Counted from the first letter of the stretch, positions 36,798-39,687 are shown. The stretch is 64,000 bases of DNA from a bacterium (GCA_965218885.1 OZ244713.1:3030625-3094624); one strand, 5' to 3'. Translations and numbers: made by a program. The notes: generated from the letters alone by a model not told the origin.

Positions 36798-37334
36798 ATG
36801 TCCCCCAGAACGCGAAAAGACATCCCCAACCCCAAACGGTGCACATGGGCCGAGGGCGACCCGCTCATGGAGAAATACCATGACGAGGAATGGGGGTTTC
36901 CCGTCCGAACGACCCGGAAACATTTTGAACAACTGACGCTCGAAATCTTTCAGGCGGGCCTCTCCTGGCGAACCATCCTCCATAAGCGCGCGGAGTTCAG
37001 AAAGGAATTTTTGCGATTCTCACCCGAGAAGGTCGCCCTCTTCACCGAGAAGGATATCAGGCGCATTCTCGGGAACCCGGGTGTCGTGCGGAACCGAAAG
37101 AAAATCGAGGCAACCATTGAGAACGCCAAAAGATTCCTGGCCATCCAGAAAAAACATGGCTCGTTCAGCCGCTATCTCGCCTCCCTGCCGGATGATCTGG
37201 AATCGCTGCAAAAGATATTCCGCGAGGAATTCACCTTCATGGGACCCAAGATCGCGGAAGCCTATCTCGAGAGCGTGGGGAAGATACCCGAACTCCACGA
37301 TCCGCGCTGCTGTCGGAATAAAAAAAATAGATAA
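36798..37334 (+). CDS. tag: DNA-3-methyladenine glycosylase I
   Basis: RCTWA, YHDEEWG, QAGLSW, RNRKKI, HDPRC. Confidence 0.93.
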   Translation: MSPRTRKDIPNPKRCTWAEGDPLMEKYHDEEWGFPVRTTRKHFEQLTLEIFQAGLSWRTILHKRAEFRKEFLRFSPEKVALFTEKDIRRILGNPGVVRNRKKIEATIENAKRFLAIQKKHGSFSRYLASLPDDLESLQKIFREEFTFMGPKIAEAYLESVGKIPELHDPRCCRNKKNR

Positions 37335-37341
37335 CTATTTA

Positions 37342-37459
37342 TATATCAATAAATTACATCTTTGTTACTAAAGTATATTATCATATCTGTTCACCCGTTC
37401 GTTTCTCCTCTTTTATTTACAGAAAAACCCCGTTAATTTATCGTATTTTATCGATATTT
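37342..37459. repeat. AT-rich element with IHF-consensus site, inverted homolog of 32265-32358
   Basis: TATCAATAAATTA (37344-37356); phased TTTATCG repeats. Confidence 0.75.
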
Positions 37460-37629
37460 ATCGATATTCGGAATCTAGTCCGTTTCCATCGGCCATAATA
37501 TCCCCTTACTCTATTTATATTATTATGAATATCTATTCTTTCCCATCTTGTCCACAATCCGCCTTTTGCAAGATGTAATCAAAACACAAGCGGATTCATT
37601 ATATTTATATGGACGCCTACCCGGTGACA

Positions 37630-37885
37630 AGGATCGATTCAGTGCGTCTGACGATCAGGTTGCAGTTTTATATTCGGCCTGTCGGTGCAGGGCTTCATGC
37701 CTGCCGGCCCTGATGGAATCAGCCGACCCGCGCCTCATTTCCCGCTAAGGCTTTTCGCCTTTGTTATAATTCAGGCTTGGCGGGTCGCGGTCTGACCTGT
37801 TCGCCATCTCACTTCGTCTTACCTTGCGCAATCCTTCGGCGTGTCATCTCCTTTCCGGTTTCGTGTTTTCTCTCGCCATCCGGAC
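37630..37885 (-). ncRNA. Putative seekRNA/bridge RNA locus of the IS1111-type element (ends approximate)
   Basis: Stem-enclosed loops containing matches to the target flanks and to the donor junction. Confidence 0.75.
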
Positions 37886-38911
37886 TCACGCAGGATGGCC
37901 GACAAAGTTTCGTTGGTATTCCCGGTCATGGGCCAGCAGGGCCCAGATCGTGCGCGCCATCTTGTTCGCCAGAGCGACGACGACCACGTTCGGGGGCCGT
38001 CGTCCGGCCAGGCGCAATATCCATTCGCGCGGCGCCTTGCCGTGGACGATTGCGGCGCGGGCGCCGTGTATCAACAAGGTGCGCAGATACCTGTCGCCCC
38101 GCTTGGAGATTCCGAGCATGCGCACCCTGCCGCCGGTCCCGACGTGCCGGGGCGTCAGACCCAGCCAGGCGGCGAACTCCCGACCGGACCTGAACGCGGC
38201 GGGATCGCCCATCGCGGCCACCAAAGCGGTCGCGCCCAGCAAACCGACACCGGGGATCTCCGCCACCCTGCGGCTCGCGGCGTTGTCCCGATGCCACAGC
38301 TTCAGGCGGCGCTCGATACCGCGAACCTCCTCGTCGAGACGGGCCACGCGCGCCCATTGCTCTCGCAGGGCGTCCACGACCATCGTCGGCAACCGCTCCG
38401 AGACCCGGCCGAGGGCAGCGGCCATGCCTCGCCGCATACCCGCCCGGCCTCGCGGCATGACCTCTCCGTATTCGGCCAAAAGACCGCGCAAGCCGTTGAT
38501 CTGCGCGGTGCGGAACTTTACCAGTTGCCCGCGCATCCGGTGCAGCGCCAGGACGGCCTGTTGCTCCTCGCTCTTGACCGCAACCGTCTTTAAGTCAGGC
38601 TGTTGCGCCGCCGTCCAGATCGCGCGTGCGTCGTGCGAATCGTTCTTGTTGCCGGCAACGAAGGGCCTCACCATCTTCGCCGGAAGCAGCCTCGCCTCGT
38701 GGCCCAACTCCCGCAGACGGCGAGCCCAGTGCTGCGAGCCGCCGCACGCCTCCATCGCAACCAGGCACGGAGCGCGATTGGCGAAGTGCTCGAGGAACCT
38801 CGCCCGACTCAGCTGCAGAGCCATACTCTTTCCCGTCTCCAACTCGACCCAGTACAATTGAAATACGCTTTTCGCTGTATCCACCCCGACGACCGTTTTG
38901 CCATTCTTCAT
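37886..38911 (-). CDS. IS110 family DEDD transposase/recombinase
   Basis: GVDTAK, MEAC, KNDSHDA, IPGVG, GLTPRHVGTGG, SKRGD, VALANKMAR. Confidence 0.96.
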   Translation of the reverse strand: MKNGKTVVGVDTAKSVFQLYWVELETGKSMALQLSRARFLEHFANRAPCLVAMEACGGSQHWARRLRELGHEARLLPAKMVRPFVAGNKNDSHDARAIWTAAQQPDLKTVAVKSEEQQAVLALHRMRGQLVKFRTAQINGLRGLLAEYGEVMPRGRAGMRRGMAAALGRVSERLPTMVVDALREQWARVARLDEEVRGIERRLKLWHRDNAASRRVAEIPGVGLLGATALVAAMGDPAAFRSGREFAAWLGLTPRHVGTGGRVRMLGISKRGDRYLRTLLIHGARAAIVHGKAPREWILRLAGRRPPNVVVVALANKMARTIWALLAHDREYQRNFVGHPA

Positions 38912-39149
38912 CACTGGACCCTCCGGTTGGCCCGGGAAGACACCATGTCTTCCCCCTGAGCATCGCAGGGTGCCACAGACCCTCAAGGACCTATATCAAC
39001 CCTCTCGAACCGCGGCACTCGGTTACCGGGTAAGCGTCCATACCATTTCCCGCGCATCCCGGCGGGTACCTGTCGGAGCATTCTGTAGCAATCGCTTGGA
39101 ATCCTCGATTACGAGAACCTTCATCGACGTTCTCCTAGTCCGGTATCGG

Positions 39150-39440
39150 CAGCCAGCGGATCATTCGACGGGCCTTGGAAGTGGAGTTGGAGGTCTTTGT
39201 GGAGGAGCATAAGGCCGAGCGTGACGCACGGGGGCACCGGGCCGTCGTTCGCGACGGTTACCTGCCAGCGCGAGAGGTGTTGACGGGAATCGGCCCGGTC
39301 ACGGTTCGGGTTCCCAGGACGCGGGACCGTAGCGGGTCGGGGATCAAGTTCAGCTCAAGATTGCTGCCGCCCTATCTGAGGCGCACGAAACAGACCACGG
39401 AATGCTGCCCCGGCTCTACCTCAAAGGAGTGTCCACGGGA
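39150..39440 (+). pseudogene. IS256 family transposase N-terminal remnant
   Basis: ALEVELE..VVRDGYLPAREVLTGIGPVTVRVPRTRDR..LPPYLRRTK, then a frameshift to LYLKGVSTG and truncation. Confidence 0.8.
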
Positions 39441-39508
39441 GCGACCTCGCTCTCCATGAAGTCGCAGGTGTACTGGGCGAATTGTTCTTCGGTGAAGGGA
39501 TACGGCAT
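39441..39508 (-). pseudogene. 5' fragment of an unknown gene truncated at the IS256 remnant
   Basis: GGAGG RBS followed by MPYPFTEEQFAQYTCDFMESEV. Confidence 0.4.
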
Positions 39509-39687
39509 GATGCCTCCGTTCCGCATCCGGGGTGTAGCCCCTCGTGGATCCTCTCCTGCCTAGCCGAATTTCCGGGAAGCGCATCCAGTGGGTACCGCTT
39601 CACGGATGGGGTGCCAACAACTCGGGCCCCCTTCGGCCCGGGAGAGGACCCCCTGCAGAGCCCAGTCCTTAGCCGAGCGGCTGGCCG

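Follow-up and report, generated by a model that had tools for sequence, protein, structure and literature searches.

The described systems closest to the element considered here are the insertion sequences (IS) ISEc11, ISKpn4, ISPa11 and ISPst6 of the IS1111 group. The sections of Siddiquee et al. (2024, PMC11187229) that characterise them report a DEDD transposase of 330-350 amino acids (aa) with the motif GL-P----S(t)G, typical of IS1111 transposases, in its C-terminal domain, subterminal inverted repeats of 11-13 bp, and a long non-coding region 3' of the transposase gene (tnp). Beyond the inverted repeats the same sections place extensions of 7 bp on the left and 3 bp on the right, occasionally 6 and 3, and they find two short guides in the non-coding seekRNA, the one complementary to the top strand lying 5' of the one matching the bottom strand. 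The longer non-coding region downstream of tnp also appears in the parts of Durrant et al. (2024, PMC11208160) that deal with the group, where 93% of IS1111 elements are predicted to have a bridge RNA in their right end; in IS621, as treated there, one loop reads the target and another the joined ends, with a sense and an antisense segment per loop around a short shared core. Here we analyse a 1443-bp element in a 64-kb stretch of bacterial DNA (GCA_965218885.1 OZ244713.1:3030625-3094624, 64,000 nucleotides (nt), hereafter the window, whose positions are used throughout), from a host genome of 3.9 Mb (G000). It appears to be an intact IS1111-group member of the IS110 family, with a predicted guide RNA that would have directed it into a multi-copy host repeat. 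We put the probability of this reading, which involves a known mechanism and no new one, at about 0.88.

Assignment to the RNA-guided IS1111 class, as made in an earlier reading of the same DNA (the original prediction), agrees with the protein and with the layout of the locus. Mechanical reading extends the open reading frame (ORF) of tnp upstream to a TTG at 38986; the proteins of the relatives align across residues 1-341 of the form listed in Table 1. This protein matches PF01548 (2.5e-11) and PF02371 (3.1e-22) in Pfam, and NCBIfam NF033542, 'IS110 family RNA-guided transposase', with 313.9 bits against a cut-off of 140. The residues D11, E54, D91 and D94 do not vary among 19 distinct full-length proteins that were aligned, and by their position we take them to be the catalytic tetrad. 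The GLxPxxxxTG motif reads G251-L252-T-P254-R-H-V-G-T259-G260, its G, L, P, T and G being invariant in the same 19 proteins. Among solved structures, ISCro4 (9t56, E = 2.8e-9) and IS621 (8wt6, E = 3.6e-8) were matched by sequence, both alignments covering the C-terminal domain only. The non-coding DNA amounts to 280 nt 3' of tnp (37885-37606) versus 137 nt 5' of it (39048-38912), and with 7/3 ends the element has the length given for ISEc11, 1443 bp (PMC11187229). Domains, motif, inverted repeats, 3' non-coding region and guide order all point to the IS1111 class, and every sequence-level feature of an IS1111 element and its seekRNA appears to be present, with the antisense donor guide as the uncertain exception.

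The core of the argument is a loop in the 3' non-coding region. As the original prediction had it, this loop contains two segments on either side of a small hairpin: GCGGGAAAT, which repeats the left junction, and ATTATA (37770-37765), six bases of which pair with the TATAAT of the right flank of the window copy. Both were found in place on the minus strand, as was every other sequence quoted in that prediction, and their order, top-strand complement 5' of bottom-strand match, is the one described for IS1111 seekRNAs. Taken alone, the matches within the window are suggestive. GCGGGAAAT occurs three times in the 64 kb (1.55 expected). When the 279-nt non-coding region was shuffled 5000 times, a 9-nt sense match for the left junction arose in 86 cases, one of 6 nt in antisense for the right junction in 1160, and the two coincided in 22.

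The relatives make the match between guides and flanks solid. One genome per species was scanned, giving 536 confirmed relatives, of which the best 80 (64-82% amino-acid identity) were kept; most come from metagenome-assembled genomes (MAGs), and counts across them are not independent. The 3' non-coding region aligns in 73 of the 80 loci at 72-85% nucleotide identity. Ends and loop borders were located in 55 loci plus the window, 25 loci being incomplete, and after filtering for a normal loop length and sufficient flank, 42 distinct site/guide combinations remained, among which 33 different guide pairs occur. In these relatives the left flank recurs in the segment that precedes a conserved UGAGGCGCGG, and the right flank in the reverse complement of the segment that follows a conserved CCUG. 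Left guide and left flank agree at 143 of 165 variable positions (permutation mean 82.7, maximum 103 in 5000), and right guide and right flank at 200 of 231 when a shift of -1, 0 or +1 is allowed (mean 115, maximum 136). Without the shift the right-guide score is low (171/420, permutation mean 123.6), because one-base displacements are common among the relatives and affect about half of the sites. Since the rows are related elements, permutation across them serves as a control and not as a probability. The expectation that other copies would sit in flanks related to their guides is borne out, both guides tracking their own flanks far beyond all 5000 permutations.

The same genome also holds the cognate site in an empty state. 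The element interrupts a host repeat, of which uninterrupted paralogs are present at G000:C1:444654-444890 and 1725338-1725594, among others. The closest of the 14 paralogs listed, G000:C1:444654-444890, reads ...GATGCGCGGGAATTATAATGAATCC..., in which GCGGGAA is followed directly by TTATAAT, that is, the left guide by the reverse complement of the right guide; this register equals the one derived independently from the relatives. The corresponding 14-mer GCGGGAATTATAAT, at G000:C1:444690, is the sole exact occurrence in the 3.9-Mb genome, against 0.011 expected, and is unoccupied. When one mismatch is tolerated the genome contains three sites, two of them repeat paralogs, and the one-mismatch site at 1725378 is empty too. 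A target of about 14 bp can be defined, as predicted, and an empty copy of it lies in the genome of the element itself. The reconstruction of the window's own empty site was correct in part. In all 14 listed paralogs 10 nt separate GCGC from ATGAATCC, and the site reconstructed from the window has 9 nt with 7/3 ends versus 10 nt with 6/3 ends, the latter being the string originally proposed; its length is that of the paralogs, and its sequence is one base off the best paralog, GCGCGGGAATTATAATGAA. That string, GCGGGAAATATAAT, occurs once elsewhere, at G000:C1:741396, in an unrelated and unoccupied context.

Table 1. Features of the element, its predicted guide RNA and the interrupted host repeat (window coordinates)
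Feature	Position	Strand	Remarks
Whole insertion sequence, 1443 bp	37606..39048	-	boundaries by the IS1111 convention, 7 bp left/3 bp right
tnp, 341-aa DEDD transposase/recombinase	37886..38911	-	ATG at 38911; profile matches
7-bp left extension AAATGGT	39048-39042	-	precedes left inverted repeat
Left subterminal inverted repeat ATGGACGCTTAC	39030..39041	-	sequence
Right subterminal inverted repeat GTAGGCGTCCAT	37609..37620	-	sequence; family consensus GGAGGCGTCCAT
3-bp right extension ATA	37608-37606	-	follows right inverted repeat
Left target half GCGCGGG	39049..39055	-	flank sequence
Right target half, AA then TATAATG	37597..37605	-	flank sequence
Conserved folded RNA (predicted)	37658..37833	-	consensus fold; encloses both loops and hairpin 37710-37676
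Outer stem G(A)UUGCG/UGCAACC	37833-37827/37664-37658	-	consensus fold
Target-binding loop of 3' guide RNA (predicted)	37724..37787	-	consensus fold, 34 sequences; same stem in single-sequence fold
Closing stem CGACCCGC/GCGGGTCG plus GCCU/AGGC	37787-37780/37731-37724	-	compensatory changes
Right-target guide AATTATAACA	37762..37771	-	ATTATAA (37770-37764) complementary to host-repeat TTATAAT
Inner hairpin AAGGC-GAAAA-GCCUU	37747..37761 (quoted letters 37760-37748)	-	separates both target guides
Left-target guide GCGGGAAAT	37737..37745	-	same sense as left junction 39053-39045, exact 9/9
Left-donor guide ATATAAAA	37666..37673	-	same sense as right-end ATATA plus first bases of left end
ATTCCAT, earlier candidate right-donor guide	37713..37719	-	unconfirmed
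TTGTCA, -35-like hexamer	37625..37630	-	17 nt before the element's last two bases; predicted from sequence
Left part of interrupted host repeat, about 45 nt	39049..39093	-	contiguous with right part in uninterrupted paralogs
Right part of interrupted host repeat, about 190 nt, AT-rich	37411..37605	-	98% identical to G000:C1:444698-444890; many further paralogs

The guides are embedded in a conserved predicted fold. The alignment comprised 34 sequences, the window with 33 of the 36 distinct relatives, after removal of L014 (tandem duplication) and of L040 and L044 (near-duplicates of L038 and L003). Its consensus structure has 44 predicted pairs, 10 of them with compensatory changes. In the target-loop stem these are 76/141 (CG 19, UA 13), 79/138 (CG 17, UA 12), 82/135, 87/133 and 88/132, which supports the closing stem CGACCCGC/GCGGGTCG at the position first proposed for it; in the inner hairpin, pairs 105-108/114-117 are compensatory (107/115 being GC in 21 and AU in 12). 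Both target guides sit in unpaired columns. Folded as a single sequence, the window copy gave z = -2.82 and the same stems, with the closing stem intact. Scans of metagenomes for the exact 43-mer of the window guide loop, and for the exact 22-mer of left guide plus stem, returned zero matches.

On the donor side, the original prediction had seen two guides in a second loop, ATATAAA (37673-37667) and ATTCCAT (37719-37713), matching the two joined ends of the element. This reading appears half supported, for the sense guide and not for the antisense candidate. The donor segment of the family, AUA[U/C]A followed by two bases and A, lies downstream of the conserved hairpin. In all 36 distinct elements the U or C of this segment corresponds to the T or C of the right end, and in 35 of 36 the next two bases are those that begin the left end; L009 is the exception, probably through a mis-assigned left end. 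Because of this co-variation ATATAAA(A) can be regarded as a real donor guide. ATTCCAT is complementary to ATGGAAT, and the left end in the window reads ATGGTAT, with one mismatch. CCAU is preceded by AUU with each variant of the variable left-end base, 14 times with A, 8 with T (the window copy among them) and 6 with G, so that no co-variation is seen, and the consensus fold pairs CCAUCA with an upstream UGAUGG, which is invariant and hence does not discriminate. Mismatched to its own end and predicted to be paired, ATTCCAT is a doubtful candidate for a donor guide.

The boundaries in Table 1 agree with the family. Alignments of the 3' region of 73 related loci stop near 37606, most of them at the equivalent of 37606 ±3, and the conserved ends read [A/G/T]AATGG[T/A/G]ATGGACGC on the left and GGAGGCGTCCATA[T/C]A on the right, with a right finish of CCATA[T/C]A. 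The 7/3 extensions fit the relatives with an unambiguous first base (L007, L011, L012, L057, L058); in these relatives the first base is G, and the 7/3 reading sets both guides in register. Under this convention the left junction of the window copy has GCGCGGG followed by AAATGG, and the right one CCATATA followed by AATATAATG. The left boundary could also be 39047, so that the crossover position is uncertain by one base and left extensions of 7 and of 6 bp both fit. The AAAT core of 4 nt originally proposed to be shared by ends and target proved over-extended: the first base of the right flank equals that of the element in 35 of 36 elements, and AAAT is not a family property because the second base is shared in only 17 of 36. 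A fixed duplicated core of 3 or 4 nt was also considered, and fails for L070, L071, L074 and L011. Nor is the offset of one nucleotide an assembly slip, because contigs from three runs of one other study span both junctions of the assembled element with zero differences.

The host repeat measures about 235 bp, is AT-rich and uncharacterised, and has at least 14 copies in the genome; Rfam gave zero matches at E <= 1 to three uninterrupted copies. It contains nested inverted repeats, GAATCCGC...GCGGATTC and CATCTTG...CAAGATG. Other genera of the same class share a module of it, about 120 nt long, with 73-75% identity, and a 60-nt sub-module, ATCGATAAATATCGATAAAATACGATAAATTAACGGGGTTTTTCTG... (window 37409-37468), has about 50 further solo copies in the genome and is also found in congeners. 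The flanks of the element were contiguous in none of the 40 relatives searched for an orthologous empty site, and in congeners what lies to the left of the repeat is a patchwork. A remnant of a Mutator/IS256-type transposase (39175-39459, plus strand; PF00872 at 4.4e-5, profile positions 41-104 of 379) adjoins the interrupted repeat.

No second copy of the element is present in the host genome, the sole other match being 157 nt at 69% identity. Five others of 40 related genomes match the element; with the non-coding region as query, G002, G012 and G010 were the only matches among 41 other genomes. The closest full relative, in G010, is 90% identical. Its loop, UAUGGCAUCG...GAAGAGGAAA, is that of the window except for the guide segments and four stem positions, and its flanks, GGAGAGGAA on the left and AAGGATGCCATG on the right, match its own guides at 8/9 and 8/10. 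The two copies appear to form a case of natural redirection of the kind reported for ISEc11 and ISXne4, close relatives whose guide segments have been replaced (as presented in the sections of PMC11187229 on this pair). Other copies are degenerate: that of G002 (L106) is 5'-truncated, that of G012 (L105/L109) is internally deleted and has lost its right end, and that of G017 is a fragment. G002 and G012 are two other species, and their copies occupy the position that the element has in the window, within the same repeat family, with ...ACGCAGGAA on the left (G012) and AGTTTGAATCAG... on the right (G002), in surroundings that beyond the repeat are unrelated to those of the window. The four congeneric copies are mosaic. 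Upstream of the loop the window is nearest to G012, downstream of it to G002 and G012, and within the loop it is unlike G010, G002 and G012 and keeps the family-consensus stem bases. We tentatively read this pattern as an exchange of the loop module by recombination after insertion. The idea that the guides were copied from the flanks after insertion is unlikely, since at four positions of the stem the window copy has the family-consensus bases, as against derived ones common to G010, G002 and G012.

Several observations weigh against an intact and guide-directed element. Under 7/3 ends the right flank of the window copy is one nucleotide out of register with its guide, and the site reconstructed in this way is one nucleotide shorter than all 14 listed paralogs. 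The predicted stems carry window-specific mismatches at pairs 29/215 and 53/156, the 12-bp inverted repeats agree at only 11 of 12 positions (left versus reverse complement of right), and ATTCCAT is mismatched to the left end. A search of 37000-39600 against the curated covariance models of Rfam 15 gave no match at E <= 1. In the G002 and G012 copies the guides are of the G010 type and do not match the repeat around them. Finally, the element is present as a single copy and its perfect paralogous site is empty; current activity is not indicated.

The last of these points bears on the alternative that survives best, namely that the element is a stranded relic, immobile with its structure kept, whose guide match records a past insertion. 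A single copy in 3.9 Mb speaks for it, as do the exact cognate site (444690) and the one-mismatch site (1725378), both still empty, the private mismatches of the window copy in two stems and the inverted repeat, the lack of a circle or excision junction in the contigs of four runs, and the fragmentary state of the sister copies in G002, G012 and G017. On the other hand, the ORF is full-length and retains all family-invariant residues, neither end and no guide segment is missing, the closing stems are unbroken, and rare circles would be invisible in contigs. We consider a relic possible but, on balance, doubtful. The word 'intact' in the original prediction can stand in its structural sense (full-length ORF, both ends, guides); that the element still functions is something we infer. 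Some contigs contain joints that skip 1443-1446 nt, and these were rejected as traces of excision: the inserted letters are those of the 444-type, the 1725-type or another paralog, and the shorter side has at most 30 letters.

A further group of explanations concerns the role of the loop in the choice of the target. Because two degenerate copies carry non-cognate guides and the copies are mosaic around the loop, we considered that the choice of the repeat is partly independent of the guide loop, or that guide modules were swapped between resident copies after insertion; we judge this improbable. Still less probable is an insertion at a repeat position not set, or not only set, by the guide loop, for example by the structure of the repeat DNA or by the protein, with the guide match secondary. 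It would account for the G002 and G012 copies, which share the exact nucleotide position in the repeat family although their guides have another specificity, and inverted repeats in the host repeat do adjoin the site. The co-variation over 33 guide pairs stands against it, and so do the mosaicism of the four copies, which would fit an exchange of loops after insertion, and the degenerate state of both odd copies. Chance similarity in a GC-rich non-coding region, to which the 22 joint and 1160 six-base hits among 5000 shuffles leave some room, is hardly credible when these two positions of the conserved fold follow the flanks from relative to relative and the predicted 14-mer has a single exact occurrence elsewhere in the genome, within a paralog of the repeat that the element interrupts.

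The guide-directed reading can be set out as a model, to which the anatomy, the conserved fold, the co-variation of guides with flanks and ends, and the empty cognate site all contribute. The element encodes a DEDD recombinase, followed 3' of the gene by a predicted folded RNA of the bridge RNA or seekRNA type. In the target loop of this RNA, (A)AUUAUAA on the 5' side is complementary to the top strand of the right target half, and GCGGGAAA(U) on the 3' side to the bottom strand of the left one. Together they would specify about 13-14 bp, GCGGGAA-(T)TATAAT, inside the multi-copy host repeat, and the element is inserted at exactly this site. A second single-stranded segment, AUAUAAAA, would read the joined ends, from the right end into the opening bases of the left one. 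On the model of relatives that have been studied, the RNA may be produced and bound by the protein, the element may excise as a circle, and the complex of RNA and protein may recombine the circle junction with a matching target and so continue to move it.

Circle junctions of IS110-type elements can create promoters, and the ends of the present element would be compatible with this. The geometry of the hexamer TTG[T/C/G]CA and its 17-nt distance is conserved in the family alignment, and joined 7/3 ends would form a TAAAAT -10 box. A scan of the integrated element for sigma-70-like promoters found none.

Compared with the described systems, the element shares with ISEc11, ISKpn4, ISPa11 and ISPst6 the features listed at the outset, but its target is a repeat of the host genus; the likeness is drawn from their published descriptions. 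It resembles IS621 (8wt6) in the predicted presence of one loop for the target and another for the joined ends; it differs in that its RNA lies 3' and not 5' of the gene, its inverted repeats are long, the alignment of the proteins (E = 3.6e-8) is confined to the C-terminal domain, the antisense donor guide lacks a confident identification, and the shared core is effectively 1-2 nt. A fixed position in a multi-copy host repeat recalls ISPpu9, which is described in repetitive extragenic palindromic (REP) sequences (in the relevant part of PMC12288879); the repeat of the window belongs to a different family, of about 235 bp and with no Rfam match. What the locus adds is an empty cognate site, a redirected sister element and two copies with non-cognate guides. 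It would offer a well-delimited natural RNA-guided recombinase whose guide set, occupied site and empty cognate site lie in one genome, and together with the 90%-identical G010 copy a compact and testable pair for natural reprogramming and for the tolerance of register shifts in the IS1111 branch. This branch is less studied than IS621, and what is known of the mechanism is unchanged by this element.

The relatives showed some further features of their own. Most of them (among loci L003-L082) occupy the interval between a motif of the GGAG type and an ATG that lies about 8 nt downstream. In 30 of 46 such sites third-position GC peaks in the frame of this ATG (binomial p about 1e-5, with non-independent sites), and a test of ORF length showed no enrichment, 19 of 51 downstream ATGs opening at least 100 codons compared with 34% of 512 control ATGs. 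A similar placement is known for other IS elements, probably of the IS900 type within the IS110 family. Their insertion between a Shine-Dalgarno sequence and a start codon was reported by Doran et al. (1997) and Inglis et al. (2003), to whom PMC2942039 refers. The likeness is one of the relatives only, the guides of the window copy pointing to the repeat. One Rhodospirillales MAG (L016-L022, L047, L050) contains at least eight copies of one element in near-identical flanks, ...CCCTCGCCCCCTTTGGGGAAA on the left and GAGAGGGATGCGGAGGCTTGGCGAGC... on the right, which match the guides of that element and would represent another host repeat used as a target. In L014 (2799-2943), a tandem duplication of about 130 nt covers the donor-loop region and the right end, and the element has two right ends.

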